NCBI RefSeq assembly: GCF_058153355.1
Contig: NZ_CM177019.1
Strand: one strand, 5' to 3'
Length of the DNA stretch: 64,000 bases
Shown one piece after another: positions 11,698 to 37,417 of the stretch (the first letter of the stretch is position 1; each line of letters starts with the position of its first letter). The notes under the pieces were generated by a model. That model searched no databases, was not told the DNA's origin, and saw nothing but the letters and a program-made list of their open reading frames with translations. The translations under genes and the position numbers were made by a program.

Positions 11698-11771
11698 TTT
11701 GACGAGGGCGCGTAATTGCCCCAATCTCATATGATAATCGTTGCCAAAGGCCAACGAGCCGGAACATAACC

Positions 11772-11807
11772 GTAGGCCGGATAGGGCGTTCACGCCGCAT
11801 CCGGCAG
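11772..11807. repeat. REP (repetitive extragenic palindromic) element
   Basis: gtaggccggatagggcgttcacgccgcatccggcag in the yhdP-tldD intergenic region; matches the canonical REP consensus. Confidence 0.6.
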
Positions 11808-11837
11808 CCGTAAAAAATCCTCTACTGCAGTAACTAA

Positions 11838-19235: not shown

Positions 19236-19530
19236 GTCAGCCCTGAAGAAGGCTGAAATAATGTTATGAAAGAGCGGGATTTTATCAAATTTCGTTATTG
19301 AGAAACATGCCTGCGTCACGGCATGCAAATTCTGCTTAAAAGTAAATTAATTGTTATCAAATTGATGTTGTTTTGGCTGAACGGTAGGGTATATTGTCAC
19401 CACCTGTTGGAATGTTGCGCTAATGCATAAGCGACTGTTAATTACGTAAGTTAGGTTCCTGATTACGGCAATTAAATGCATAAACGCTAAACTTGCGTGA
19501 CTACACATTCTTGAGATGTGGTCATTGTAA

Positions 19531-20544
<1,014 letters not shown>

Positions 20545-20569
20545 TTGATTAGCGGATAATAAAAAACCG

Positions 20570-20581
20570 GAGCACAGACTC
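20570..20581. repeat. Target-site duplication (left) of the IS4 insertion
   Basis: gagcacagactc directly abuts the IS4 left end; identical 12-mer at 22008-22019. Confidence 0.7.
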
Positions 20582-22007
20582 TAATGCCAGTCAGTTAAGC
20601 AACTGACTGGCTCTTTTTCGGGGCTGTGGGGTATTTCCAGGGCCTCTCCTTTACCACTCTCGGGAAGGCCCTTTCCCTTCTTGTCGGTAATTTCACAAGT
20701 TGTCCCATACTTGCAAGATCGCGCATCAGCTCCGGTATACGTCCCGGTGAAGCGCCCTGCAATGTCATCAGCATTCTCATCACCATTCCGCATGATTCTG
20801 AGAAACTCAGTTGATTCGGCCAGTAACCTTTCAGATGTTCCGCCATTTTAATCATCTGATATCTCACCAGATTATAAGCCAGTAAGACACCCCACAGCTC
20901 TTGCTCCACAAGCTCCGGCTTTTTACTTCTCAGCGTCAGCCTGCTCAGTTGCATCGTCTGTTTTATCTCCCTGTATCCCAGTTCGATTTCCCAGCGATGA
21001 CTGTACAGATCCGCCATTTCTCCTCCGGGGAAGCGCATGGCGTCCGTCATCGACGTCAGCAGATGGCAGACTTTTCCTTTGCGCGTCACGGTCAGCAGGC
21101 GGGCTGTCACTTCATTTCCCAGTCCCGGCCACTTTTTTCGTGCCTGCGGGCTGGTTTTCAGCTTCACCAGATGATCGCCTTTACCCAGTTTTCTGATCTC
21201 TTCATATTGCGCTCCCTTTCTGAGAGGTATCATCCAGTGGCGGTGTTCTCCCGCCAGGCTCCAGGCATTTAACAGTCCCAGTGAGTAATAACCTTTATCC
21301 ATTAACGTCAGAGTGTTATCGCCGGTTTGTTCTATAAGTTGCTCAGCAAGCTCATTTTCGCTGTTCTTCATCGTGCCGAAGGCTGCAGCCGTCAGCAGAT
21401 GGCTGGTCAGTTCCATCTGGCAGACCATTTTGACCTGCGGGTAGAGCGCCGGGTTCCCGGCATGTGTCTGGCGGGGGAAGGCTGCATCGTTCTCTGGTGT
21501 ATCCGGTGTGCGCCAGAACACACCATCGATGGCCAGCAGGGTCAGGCCGCACCAGTGCGGATGCGGCGTGGCGTTATGCCAGAGCTGCGCTGTTTTCGTG
21601 AACACGCGGCGGACAGCCTCACTTCCCAGGCGCTGGCGGGCCTGAATAACGGCACTGGGGGCAACGAAGGGGCGATTGCCCGGCAGCATGATGTCCAGGC
21701 GATTCACAATCTGGTGAAGAGGTTCTTTACGCTCAAGCGCCATGCCAACAATACACCAGACCATCATTTCGAGGGGAAGACGGCGCTTGCGTAGCGTTAC
21801 AGTACCTGATTCGGCAAGGCAACGAGAGATGAGTTCGGGGTCGAGGTAATCCCCCAGAGAAGTCAGTGGGTTACGCAGAGAATCGTAACGGGATACCAGA
21901 TCAAGAGCCTGTCCAATGTGCATAAAAAAATCCGGAAACAAGTGAGCGTTTCCGGATTCTTACACAGCCACTGGATCGGTCAACTGATCCTTAACTGATC
22001 GGCATTA
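20582..22007 (-). mobile_element. IS4 insertion sequence, complete (1426 bp)
   Basis: Imperfect terminal inverted repeats taatgccagtcagttaagc (left) and ccttaactgatcggcatta (right); single transposase ORF; flanked by a 12-bp direct repeat; length matches IS4. Confidence 0.9.
20595..21923 (-). CDS. insG: IS4 transposase (InsG-like, DDE family)
   Basis: Canonical start [32 protein letters not shown] inside ORF-track frame 20595-21941; 442 aa. Confidence 0.9.
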
Positions 22008-22019
22008 GAGCACAGACTC
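22008..22019. repeat. Target-site duplication (right) of the IS4 insertion
   Basis: gagcacagactc directly abuts the IS4 right end; identical to 20570-20581. Confidence 0.7.
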
Positions 22020-22044
22020 CGGTTTTTTGTTTTGAGCGCACGAC

Positions 22045-23112
22045 TTAATTGGTTGCCGGATATTCCTGAATGGTGACCTGCAGCGTTAACTGCTTATCAT
22101 CACGCATCACGACAACCGGGATCACCGAGCCAGGGCGAATTTCCGCCACCTGATCCATCGTCTCCAGAGCAGAGATGGCCGGTTTGTTATCCACCGAAAT
22201 AATCAAATCATTGACCTGTATACCCGCATTCGCCGCCGGGCCGTCAGGTGACACTTCATTAACCACGATCCCTTGCAGTTGATCTATACCACCGCCCTGC
22301 GCGTGCAGTGGTGCGATCTCACGTCCGCCGATACCAATGTAGCCGCGGATCACGCGACCATCGCGGATCAGCTTATCCATAATTTTGGTTGCTAACTGGA
22401 AAGGAATCGCAAAGCCGATGCCTTCCGGCGTTTCGCCATCGTTACTCTTATCAAACGACAGCGTGTTAATGCCCATCAGTTCGCCCAGCGAGTTCACCAG
22501 TGCGCCGCCAGAGTTACCGTGGTTAATGGAAGCATCGGTTTGCAGGAAGTTTTGCCGCCCGGTCGGGTTCAGACCAATTCGACCCGTGGCACTAATAATC
22601 CCCTGGGTAATGGTCTGCCCGAGGTTGTACGGGTTACCGATCGCCAGTACCACGTCACCAATGTGCGGTACGCGACGTGCATTGATTGGAATGGTAGGTA
22701 AACCGCCAGTGGCATTAATTTTAAGTACCGCCAGATCGGTTAGAGAGTCAGATCCCACCAGCAATGCTTCAAATACACGTCCATCTTGTAAGGCGACGAT
22801 GATCTGATCGGCGTCGTTGATGACGTGTTTATTGGTGATGATATAACCGCGTTGATCCATGATTACACCGGATCCCAGGGTGCGGATCTCAAGCTGGTTG
22901 TGAGAGTTGGTGTTCAAACCACGGTTGTAAACGTTAACCACCGCTGGCGCGGCGCGGCGAACCGCCAGATTATAGCTGGCAGGCGTCTCATCGGTACTGT
23001 CAAATTGCGGAGTGGAAAGCGGGTTAAGGCTGCGCAGTGAAGGCATGGCAACCAGCAGAATAGCGCCGACAATTAATCCAATCGCAACGGAACGTAAGAG
23101 CTTCACAAACAT
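22045..23112 (-). CDS. degS: Serine endoprotease DegS (sigma-E pathway site-1 protease)
   Basis: 355-aa ORF MFVKLLRSVAIGLIVGAILLVAMP... with trypsin-like and PDZ domains. Confidence 0.95.
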   Translation of the reverse strand: MFVKLLRSVAIGLIVGAILLVAMPSLRSLNPLSTPQFDSTDETPASYNLAVRRAAPAVVNVYNRGLNTNSHNQLEIRTLGSGVIMDQRGYIITNKHVINDADQIIVALQDGRVFEALLVGSDSLTDLAVLKINATGGLPTIPINARRVPHIGDVVLAIGNPYNLGQTITQGIISATGRIGLNPTGRQNFLQTDASINHGNSGGALVNSLGELMGINTLSFDKSNDGETPEGIGFAIPFQLATKIMDKLIRDGRVIRGYIGIGGREIAPLHAQGGGIDQLQGIVVNEVSPDGPAANAGIQVNDLIISVDNKPAISALETMDQVAEIRPGSVIPVVVMRDDKQLTLQVTIQEYPATN

Positions 23113-23201
23113 GATGGAGGCGTCATTAAAAAAGGGAACGGCAGCAGCATACCACGAGTTAACCGGACATCACACGTCAGCCTGATGCCCGGTTTACGAC
23201 A

Positions 23202-24569
23202 TTAACGCATCAGCAAATAGATGCTTTCATTGCCGCGTACAATTTGCAGGGCGATGATGGCCGGTTTTGCCGCCAGCACTTTACGCATTTCAGCAATCGA
23301 GTTCACCCGATCGCGGTTGACGCCAATGATCACATCGTCTTTTTGCAAGCCTGCCTGAGCAGCTGGGCTTCCTTTGACAACCTCATCGATCTTAATACCT
23401 TTGCCGCCATCTTTTAGCTGACCATCGCTCAACGTTGCACCTTCCAGCGCTGGCGTGATCATTTCAGCGCTGGCCGACGAAGAGGTGCTGGTATCGAGCG
23501 TCACTTCTACTTCCAGTGGTTTGCCGTTACGCAGCAGGCCAAGCTTCACTTTCGTGCCCGGCTCGGTGGTTGCGATACGAGAGCGCAACTCAGCAAAGCT
23601 ATTCAGCGGTTTGCCGTTGAGGCTGGTAATAATATCGCCCGCTTTGATGCCCGCTTTTGCCGAGCCAGAACCTGGCAACACTTCGCTGACAAACGCGCCA
23701 CGCTGCACGTCAAGGTTGAAGGCTTTGGCGATATCGGCACTCATCTCGGTGCCTTTGATGCCTAACAGACCGCGTTTGATTTCACCAAAGTCGATAAGCT
23801 GCTGCGCCAGTGTTCGCGCCATATTACTGGGGATGGCAAATCCAATCCCGACGCTCCCACCGCCAGGCGCAAGGATTGCAGTGTTGATGCCAATTAACTC
23901 ACCGTTAAGGTTTAACAGTGCACCGCCGGAGTTACCGCGGTTAATGGAAGCATCTGTCTGGATAAAGTTTTCAAGACCTTCAAGATTCAACCCGCTGCGG
24001 CCTAATGCGGAAACAATGCCAGAGGTGGCGGTTTGCCCAAGGCCAAATGGGTTACCGACTGCCACGGCAAAATCACCGACGCGCAGTTTGTCTGAGTCGG
24101 CAATGGCGATTTGCGTTAATTTACTCGGGTTTTGAATTTGCAAAAGGGCGATATCGCTTTGGTCATCGCTACCAATCAGTTTTGCATCAAACTCGCGCCC
24201 ATCATTGAGTTGAATACTGATTTTCTGTGCCTGTTTAATTACATGGTTGTTGGTCAGAACATAGCCTTTACTGGCGTTGATGATGACACCGGAGCCTAAA
24301 CCTTCGAAAGGTTGTGCAGGTTGATCCGGTAAATCATCACCAAAAAACTTTTTGAATTCTTCCGGGATTTTCTGTCCCTGACTGGCCGTTCCTTCCACTC
24401 GTACGCTCACCACTGCCGGAAGCACTTTTTCCAGCATTGGGGCCAGACTGGGGAGAGGGGCCTGATCGGCAACCTGGCCTGGAATCGACGCAACGGCCTG
24501 AAATGACGCCGAGAGAGTTAACCCGACACTTAACGCTAATGCACTCAACAGCTGGGTTTGTTTTTTCAT
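23202..24569 (-). CDS. degQ: Periplasmic serine endoprotease DegQ
   Basis: Canonical start MKKQTQLLSALALSVGLTLSASFQAVA inside ORF-track frame 23202-24611; 455 aa. Confidence 0.9.
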   Translation of the reverse strand: MKKQTQLLSALALSVGLTLSASFQAVASIPGQVADQAPLPSLAPMLEKVLPAVVSVRVEGTASQGQKIPEEFKKFFGDDLPDQPAQPFEGLGSGVIINASKGYVLTNNHVIKQAQKISIQLNDGREFDAKLIGSDDQSDIALLQIQNPSKLTQIAIADSDKLRVGDFAVAVGNPFGLGQTATSGIVSALGRSGLNLEGLENFIQTDASINRGNSGGALLNLNGELIGINTAILAPGGGSVGIGFAIPSNMARTLAQQLIDFGEIKRGLLGIKGTEMSADIAKAFNLDVQRGAFVSEVLPGSGSAKAGIKAGDIITSLNGKPLNSFAELRSRIATTEPGTKVKLGLLRNGKPLEVEVTLDTSTSSSASAEMITPALEGATLSDGQLKDGGKGIKIDEVVKGSPAAQAGLQKDDVIIGVNRDRVNSIAEMRKVLAAKPAIIALQIVRGNESIYLLMR

Positions 24570-36367: not shown

Positions 36368-37234
36368 CTATAGCCTTCCTCTAGCACCGCCTGTGTTCGA
36401 ACGAGTTCGGCGGTGGAAAAACAGCAGATCGACACGAAACCAGTTGTCATCAATGCGTAACCTTCGCTGCCGACCAACAAAGGCAAAATCATCCCCAAGT
36501 TCCAGCATTAAATCCATCAGGTGATTGATCAGCGCCTCCTCAAAATCGGATTCTGAGTATTCATCTTTCAATTCCAGAAATTCGAGCACAAAGGGATCGC
36601 GTATCGCCTGTTGCGGAAGAATATGCGTCTCGGCAGGAGCGTGTTGTTGCAGCATGGCTGATTTGTCATGTGACAGTAGTGTTCGCTCATAAAATTGGGT
36701 CGCAATTTGCCGCTCTAGCTGGCGGACAGACCAACCACAGCGGAGCGCCTCTTTTTCATAAAAGCTGCGGGCGTCAGCGTTTTTAACGGAAAGTAGACGG
36801 ACGTAGGTGGACCAAGGCAGGGGGAACGATTTGGCAGACAGCGTCTGCCAAATCTTTGCCGATGGGAATTCTGCAGACGGTGTCTGCGGAATTCCCAATG
36901 GTGTTAATTCGCCAGACACTGTCTGGCGAATTTCAACATGTTGAAAAAAGAGGTAAAAAAGCCTCATTTGGCGTAAGTTTTTTGCAGAGAACCCACGCTT
37001 ATACCTTAGACTTAAATCCTTTGATAGTCGCTTGATTAGCTGCGCACCATACGCAGCTCTGGCCTCGCCACCTTGTTCAAATTCGACAATTCGTCGGCCA
37101 ATTTCCCAGTACGTCGCGGTCATCAGCGCGTTAACGCTACGTACCGTTTCCGTTCGGGCGCTATCGACCAGATGAATAATGCCGTCGTGGATTTGCTGGT
37201 AGCCTGCTGTGGTTCCTTCTGAGAGCGATTCCAT
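36368..37234 (-). pseudogene. yhcG: yhcG-like DUF1016 / PD-(D/E)XK nuclease-family gene, apparently truncated near the 3' end
   Basis: 288-aa ORF MESLSEGTTAGYQQIHDGIIHLVDSARTE... runs to ...RIDDNWFRVDLLFFHRR then gives 12 unrelated residues and a stop; the following ExK nuclease motif is absent; K-12 YhcG recalled as about 375 aa. Confidence 0.5.
36830..36932. repeat. Three tandem perfect palindromes (CAGAC-N3-GTCTG cores) inside the yhcG coding sequence
   Basis: tttggcagacagcgtctgccaaa (36830-36852), gaattctgcagacggtgtctgcggaattc (36866-36894), aattcgccagacactgtctggcgaatt (36906-36932); each encodes I-x-Q-T-x-S-x-E/K on the minus strand. Confidence 0.7.
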
Positions 37235-37417
37235 TATCTTTCCCTTTATATGGCGCAGTGTTGAATAATGGAATCAGCTATACGCCGGGCATCTGCCGGT
37301 AACAATCCAGATGTGCGTATTACATTGGTTTTCTTCAGATTATGCGAGGCGCTTTCCAGAACGAAAGGAGAATTTCAGCGCCGACTCTTTTCTGAGGAGG
37401 CGGCGCTGGGACAGAGC

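Follow-up and report, generated by a model that had tools for sequence, protein, structure and literature searches.

The closest described system for the locus analysed here is IS4 of E. coli K-12 (insG), reportedly described by Klaer et al. in 1981. The classic IS4 insertions are those in galT and in the pheST attenuator, and the latter is said to have been reported by Mayaux et al. in 1984 as an insertion that also went into a terminator structure. The IS4 target consensus, the pseudo-palindrome AAA-N20-TTT, reportedly comes from the same work. Other mobile elements are also selective in their sites (IS1397 and ISKpn1 target REP/BIME, and Tn7 inserts downstream of glmS), and self-protection against outside transcription is exemplified by the fold-back inhibition of IS10/Tn10 and the left-end terminator of IS200. 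Insertion in REP has been described for ISPpu9, ISPa11 and ISRm22 (PMC1525189), and 5' terminators of IS elements keep outside transcription from driving expression (Naville & Gautheret 2010, PMC2965389).

Within the whole stretch of DNA analysed (64 kb, hereafter the window), we found a complete IS4 at 20582-22007, exactly 1426 bp long and with its transposase sense on the minus strand. IS4 is defined by a length of ~1426 bp and by 18-bp imperfect inverted repeats of the form TAATGCC(G/A)(A/G)TCAGTTAAG, and both features are present. The element starts at 20582 with TAATGCCAGTCAGTTAAG and ends at 22007 with the reverse complement of TAATGCCGATCAGTTAAG, the two repeats matching at 16 of 18 positions. 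The right repeat (IRR, 20582-20599, located by terminal-repeat comparison) adjoins mdh, and the left repeat (IRL, 21990-22007, reading TAATGCCGATCAGTTAAG on the minus strand and located from invariant alignment columns) adjoins degS. Three GATC sites lie within the first 35 nt of the IRL end. Downstream of this end there is also a promoter-like site on the minus strand (21956-21983, TTGACC-16 nt-AAGAAT, with TG), a putative assignment from its match to the consensus.

The transposase gene (20595-21923, minus strand) is a single long and uninterrupted ORF of 442 amino acids, with its ATG at 21923 and its stop codon at 20597-20595. Its product matches the NCBIfam model NF033592, 'IS4 family transposase', with 304.5 bits (E = 8.7e-91, cut-off 115), and contains the Pfam domains PF13006 (Nterm_IS4) and PF01609 (DDE_Tnp_1). 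Across its 1426 bp the element is 99.9% identical to E. coli copies annotated as IS4, and it has 1 to 9 nucleotide differences from 21 copies located at the same site in other genomes. The element is IS4 itself and not a relative, showing all the defining features that could be tested. The ORF and both ends of this copy are intact.

The element is flanked by two copies of GAGCACAGACTC, located by a repeat search at 20570-20581 (left) and 22008-22019 (right), with no further copy on either strand of the window. The probability of a match to a given 12-mer by chance is ~6e-8. The duplication is perfect and its 12 bp correspond to about one helical turn, as is characteristic of IS4 (11-13 bp). 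Deleting the element together with one copy of the repeat leaves the empty site AAAAAACCGGAGCACAGACTCCGGTTTTTT, whose context reads ...ATAATAAAAAACCGGAGCACAGACTCCGGTTTTTTGTTTT... and folds into a hairpin of -19.2 kcal/mol on the plus strand and -17.4 on the minus strand (z = -6.7 and -6.3), a stability that none of 200 shuffled sequences reached. This ancestral site, A6-CCGGAG-CACAGA-CTCCGG-T6, is a GC-rich stem-loop that is followed by a U-run whichever strand is read, and it separates the 3' ends of the convergent genes mdh (malate dehydrogenase, 312 amino acids, 19606-20544, plus strand) and degS (355 amino acids, 22045-23112, minus strand). Both genes were identified by comparison with the annotation of homologous loci, together with the translation of mdh and the ORF of degS. 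The stop codon of each lies 37 nt from the element, and degQ follows degS as in annotated E. coli loci. The hairpin thus looks like a bidirectional intrinsic terminator common to mdh and degQ-degS, a description that follows from its modelled fold and its position.

The duplicated GAGCACAGACTC comprises 3 bp of stem, the 6-nt loop and 3 bp of stem, centred on the dyad of the hairpin. The geometry of the cuts leaves two outer remnants of the terminator, the A6 run (20561-20566) with the stem segment CCG at 20561-20569 on the left, and the stem segment CGG with the T6 run (22023-22028) at 22020-22028 on the right. After the insertion, each remnant of the hairpin retains a 3-bp stem and folds at only -0.2 kcal/mol. 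An earlier sequence-only reading of this DNA had described a complete 1426-bp IS4 between 12-bp repeats whose removal would rebuild a hairpin shared by mdh and degS, and coordinates, inverted repeats, transposase and the split stem-loop all agree with that description. So does its remark that mdh, on the plus strand, is transcribed antisense to the minus-strand transposase gene. The same reading had proposed a probably strain-specific insertion with transcripts reading into the element from both sides. Taken to its full extent, this proposal amounts to a one-off event that abolished termination, with far read-through, altered expression of mdh and degS, and antisense RNA to the transposase. 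The split hairpin and its nearly unstructured remnants speak in favour of it, and the distribution of the insertion among genomes and the structure of the element's ends bear on its other parts.

In agreement with the sequence-only reading, K-12 has no IS4 here; the mdh-degS intergenic region of MG1655 is 62 bp long and without IS. We searched complete E. coli genomes with the reconstructed 800-bp empty site, counting a genome when at least 80% of the query length matched in one place, and found the site empty in 5404 of 5426 (99.6%), a rarity that would also be expected of a one-off event. The insertion is therefore absent from most reference genomes, and the 12-mer is indeed duplicated around it, as that reading would have it. 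However, a query spanning the mdh/IS junction was fully covered in nine genomes carrying IS4 in the same orientation as the window (E4, GN25, AR_0013, N32, NCTC10973, VR50, CE10, IAI39 and AF57), and a chimeric query for the opposite orientation was fully covered in another 12. Together with the empty sites these add up to 5425, every complete genome that has the locus. All 21 carrier loci contain a 1426-bp IS4 with a 12-bp duplication at the identical base-pair position, and RefSeq labels the element there 'IS4-like element IS4 family transposase'. Hence, the insertion site is already known, since public genomes, IAI39 and CE10 among them, contain it in annotated form; a literature search returned no publication connecting IS4 with mdh and degS. 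With 21 other complete genomes and close relatives of the window's strain carrying the same insertion, "strain-specific" proved too narrow a term.

The host lineage of the window is not that of the carriers, and in 2500 positions its flanks have at least 25 differences from each of them. It shares 97.2-97.8% identity with K-12 and, over 12 kb, 99.2% with the best-matching complete E. coli genome. Its close relatives were found through an exact match of the YhdP protein, which retrieved five short-read assemblies. The two of these that we examined (SRR8656992 and SRR28786219) have 3 to 5 differences from the window over 20.6 kb, and their contigs stop 27 nt inside the IRR at the junction seen in the window. 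IS copies often cause misassembly and the relatives' contigs do break at this junction, so a repeat misplaced between mdh and degS by the assembler has to be considered. We regard such an artefact as hardly conceivable, given the perfect 12-bp duplication, the completeness of both IS4 ends, the same left junction in independent SRA assemblies and the same architecture in the 21 complete genomes, which come from different laboratories. The shared junction indicates instead that members of this lineage have the insertion in common and that it did not arise in assembly.

The carriers also bear on how often the site has been hit. Combining orientation, 2.5 kb of flank and 20 variable positions of the IS, we distinguished ~12 different combinations among the 21 carriers, with the window counted separately; as a number of independent insertions this figure rests on flank variants and not on a genome phylogeny, so recombination could inflate it. 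Some genomes share identical flanks and carry IS4 in opposite orientations (VR50 versus DLI.6n/SW070919, and E4 versus G5), and NCTC10973 and VR50 share identical flanks with IS copies that are 11 sites apart. Both orientations and divergent IS copies on identical flanks point to repeated independent insertion. In AST215, the loop variant GAGCATAGACTC is duplicated on both sides of the element, which indicates that IS4 entered an allele already carrying the change, and E4, G5 and ECamp52 have a T5 instead of a T6 run directly beside the duplication.

These same data weigh on another explanation, in which IS4 entered the site once long ago, or once in each orientation, and was then carried from one E. 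coli lineage to another through homologous recombination across mdh-degS. In its favour, mdh lies within a recombining region of the core genome, and both flanks and IS copies are identical within a group of five genomes that includes IAI39 and CE10 and within another five-genome group, that of Ecol_881. A single origin is nonetheless very improbable considering the identical duplication in both orientations, the differences directly beside the element in AST215 and in the T5 alleles, and the 2.5-kb flanks that are identical around divergent or inverted IS copies. It is further opposed by the target motif itself, which other taxa have at over 150 unrelated sites (see below), so that repeated hits are to be expected. 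Comparison of these sequences suggests that the mdh/degS terminator is a recurrent IS4 hot spot, hit independently many times and in both orientations. Altogether, 2686 of the 5426 genomes contain IS4, with 5468 places in total, of which the mdh/degS copies make up ~0.4%.

The hot spot would be a consequence of the target preference of IS4. The mdh/degS site fits the AAA-N20-TTT consensus exactly (AAA-accg-[12 bp]-cggt-TTT). Scanning species-representative genomes with the 24-mer of the IRL yielded 34 ends, distributed over seven genera (Photorhabdus, Photobacterium, Kosakonia, Rosenbergiella, Rahnella, Pectobacterium and Buttiauxella), and none of the matches was an Escherichia record; the two complete elements recovered are ~79-80% identical to IS4, and relatives at this distance served in the covariation analysis below. 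The outer flanks of these 34 ends have A at positions -20 to -16 in 68-88% of cases, followed by a GC-rich segment, a loop and a G-rich return, and AAA occurs at -23 to -15 in 29 of the 34, compared with 11.6% at random positions of the same loci. The same pattern appeared in metagenomes, where a scan with the 18-mer of the IRR provided 117 distinct flanks, with A in 74-78% at -19 to -16 and AAA in 84 of the 117 against a background of 11%.

Ten further IS4 sites in E. coli were examined, eight of them with a duplication of 12-14 bp. The A-run/hairpin/T-run motif is clear at five of these eight: tdk/adhE, the glmS terminator (L064), a site downstream of eno, one inside a prophage, and the 3' side of a gene of the glycogen phosphorylase family. 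The remaining three (L061, L062 and L063) have only weak palindromes, and the two sites without duplication (L066 and L067) have exchanged flanks. Weak or duplication-less sites like these indicate that IS4 strongly prefers such targets but does not absolutely require them. At complete sites, 3 bp (occasionally 4) separate each cut from the A-run or the T-run on its outer side, and the duplications, at 12-14 bp, are 6-7 bp shorter than the distance from one run to the other (18-20 bp). By this pattern, the mdh/degS hairpin (A6-CCG, GAGCACAGACTC, CGG-T6) appears to be a near-ideal IS4 target, and the nearly equal use of both orientations fits a target that is itself symmetric.

The element carries hairpins of its own near both ends. 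At the end adjoining mdh, the terminator scan identified a hairpin followed by TCTTTTT on the plus strand (20586-20618, -17.5 kcal/mol). Its perfect 11-bp stem (20586-20596/20601-20611, loop AAGC) starts 5 nt inside the element, and the 5' arm is formed by the IRR itself. The same fold-back of the IRR, again with a T-rich tail, was found in 35 out of 103 distinct metagenomic ends that are otherwise unrelated in their downstream sequence, and the Photorhabdus and Rosenbergiella relatives have it as well. The hairpin is invariant in three full-length relatives and the search pattern fixed its 5' arm, so that these sequences are uninformative for compensatory changes. Modelled in this way, the structure is terminator-like for transcripts entering from mdh. 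The same hairpin also lies just downstream of the stop codon of the transposase. A separate candidate, a terminator for IS4 transcripts leaving toward mdh (minus strand, 20600-20556), was rejected, with a fold of -8 kcal/mol and z = -0.8.

At the end adjoining degS, the minus strand contains the hairpin AAUCCGGAAAC-N8-GUUUCCGGAUU followed by U7 (21924-21958, with the stem-loop at 21958-21929 and a fold of -15.5 kcal/mol), and the U7 runs directly up to the AUG of the transposase. The terminator scan skipped this structure because the extension of the stem consumed part of the U-run, and it was therefore assessed by folding and covariation. When ten variants from eight genera were aligned, 99.1% of the cells were paired, and compensatory changes were seen at four of the 11 pairs (GC to AU, GC to UA, AU to UA and CG to UA). 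None of 500 shuffles gave a covariation as high, and shifting the pairing partners by one column lowered pairing to 51-59%. We consider this hairpin a predicted terminator and occluder of the ribosome-binding site for transcripts entering from degS. The promoter-like -10 sits in its 5' arm, so that the transcript of IS4 itself, from a start site placed by that match, would lack the arm. An Rfam search of 19400-23300 found no family, save for a chance match to an lncRNA at E = 0.7.

The hairpins at the two ends are stronger than the stem that the host lost (-17.5 and -15.5 kcal/mol versus -9.2 and -10.4), and with a hairpin and U-run facing inward at each end long read-through is not to be expected. 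The two parts of the read-through proposed by the sequence-only reading consequently fare differently, with the loss of the host hairpin borne out and extensive transcription into the element opposed by the predicted terminators. Lost termination is further opposed by the covariation that supports one of the two hairpins (that of the IRL). Besides, degS is an essential gene and mdh a highly expressed one, and the similar frequency of both orientations beside them suggests little cost either way. A one-off insertion with loss of termination thus seems unlikely to us, though less so than either recombinational spread or misassembly.

We consider it highly likely that an intact IS4 transposed into the mdh/degS terminator, a preferred and recurrent target, and that hairpins of its own at both ends probably stop incoming transcripts. 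Staggered cuts made ~3 bp inward of the A-run and of the T-run, at equal distances from the hairpin centre, would have produced the 12-bp duplication. The host hairpin is lost, with only a 3-bp stem left per duplicated copy. The mdh mRNA would then stop ~30-37 nt inside IS4, where the IRR hairpin predicts a 3' end, and the degS mRNA ~78-84 nt inside it, at the U7 of the IRL hairpin. Termination at these end hairpins is probable, as far as the folding models go, and the insertion appears to be close to neutral for the host. For the element, the end structures would keep host transcription from either driving or opposing transposase expression. Its own transcript would start within the stem and escape the structure that transcripts from outside would form.

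A broader idea, put forward tentatively and with slightly less than even confidence, is that elements of the IS4 subgroup may be dedicated 'terminator-swapping' transposons, which seek bidirectional terminators and bring replacements at both ends. Recognition would then consist of measuring ~3 bp inward from each of the two runs (A and T), and the dependence of duplication length (12-14 bp) on hairpin size would be accounted for in this way. If this were true, swapping terminators would make insertion near-neutral in either orientation, which in turn would explain repeated and retained insertions at sites like mdh/degS, beside an essential gene, and would define predictable safe-harbour sites in enterobacterial genomes.

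The window itself holds a known element at a typical site, where its influence on mdh and degS is probably small. The wider interest lies in the prediction of sites, which becomes feasible if insertions of the IS4 group are nearly confined to A-run/hairpin/T-run terminators and carry terminators of their own. Parallel IS4 insertions could also be mistaken for shared ancestry, and a shared site would be poor evidence of common descent. This caution matters, given that mdh serves as an MLST locus and that lineages are sometimes marked by the presence of an IS. In addition, the way in which a DDE transposase reads a palindromic target could be tested in the simple system that IS4 targeting offers.

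Compared with IS4 of K-12, the copy in the window has the same 1426 bp, the 18-bp imperfect inverted repeats, the 442-amino-acid DDE transposase and a duplication within the 11-13 bp range, but it is located at a chromosomal site different from those of the K-12 insertions. It differs from the common E. coli variants of IS4 by 1 to 9 nucleotides. With IAI39, CE10, VR50 and the 18 other complete genomes it shares the insertion point and the 12-bp duplication, in a different host lineage and with 12 of the 21 carriers in the opposite orientation. Like the REP-targeting IS and Tn7, IS4 picks structured intergenic DNA at the 3' ends of genes, a choice of site that limits damage to the host. Unlike them, its target is the generic A-run/hairpin/T-run motif, with neither a repeat family nor a protein as guide. 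As for protection from outside transcription, IS4 resembles IS10, IS200 and the 5' terminators of other IS elements in having a hairpin between its left end and the start of the transposase that would form only in transcripts coming from outside. In the IS4 version, for which this role is predicted from structure and covariation, the hairpin is followed by U7 and includes the likely ribosome-binding region. In contrast to the IS10 and IS200 cases, IS4 has a second terminator-like hairpin, built from the IRR.

The window shares 97.2-97.8% identity with K-12, and over 12 kb of it the closest complete RefSeq E. coli genome reaches 99.2% at most; near-identical matches, among the sequences found, come only from SRA assemblies. 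The window represents a poorly represented lineage of Escherichia or Shigella. Alignment to K-12 also showed that ~7 kb of that genome (3360618-3367699), comprising gltF and the yhcA-yhcD-yhcE-yhcF fimbrial cluster with its IS5, is absent from the window at 37361-37416, beside a segment (36408-37361) with an identity to K-12 of only 94.4%. The alignment breaks again in the tldD/yhdP interval (window 11748-11811), where a short overlapping repeat takes the place of ~210 bp of K-12 (3392133-3392344); the two sequences probably differ here in the number of REP/BIME copies.

Among the further E. coli IS4 sites, one copy lies within the terminator immediately 3' of glmS (GCA_000714895.1, JMIZ01000008.1 2745423-2749769), with a 13-bp duplication; the site reads, in order, AAAAAAGGGC, CACCGGTCGGCAG and CCCTTTTTT. 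This downstream region is where Tn7 has its attachment site. In another genome (GCA_052122925.1, CM125673.1 ~1879-1905 kb), two IS4 copies, L066 and L067, have no duplications and their flanks are swapped, each bearing one half of the mukB/ldtD terminator site, an arrangement that indicates a ~22-kb chromosomal inversion via recombination between the two copies. A 265-bp contig labeled Methylobacterium mesophilicum (L025, NZ_BPQU01000128.1) also bears an IS4 IRL end (the degS-side terminal inverted repeat in the window) of the E. coli type. Since this end and an E. coli IS4 site (L062, in which ACAAACACCAGAACCAAGAT precedes the element) have identical flanking sequence, the contig is probably E. 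coli contamination in that assembly.

Matches to the 18-mer of the opposite terminal repeat, IRR, occurred as inverted pairs spaced only ~150-240 bp apart in three metagenomic contigs (L099, 1277-1472; L111, 1615-1853; L131, 2974-3139). These pairs resemble MITE-like elements: short, non-autonomous derivatives of the IS4 group. The short copy in L099 has an A-run/hairpin/T-run target, with a duplication of 11 bp.

The first 35 nt of the IRL end contain three GATC (Dam) sites (window 21973-22000), located on either side of a -35-like TTGACC. Because all three are invariant in the 10 aligned IS4-group variants, their conservation suggests control by Dam methylation, of the kind that IS10 and IS50 show.
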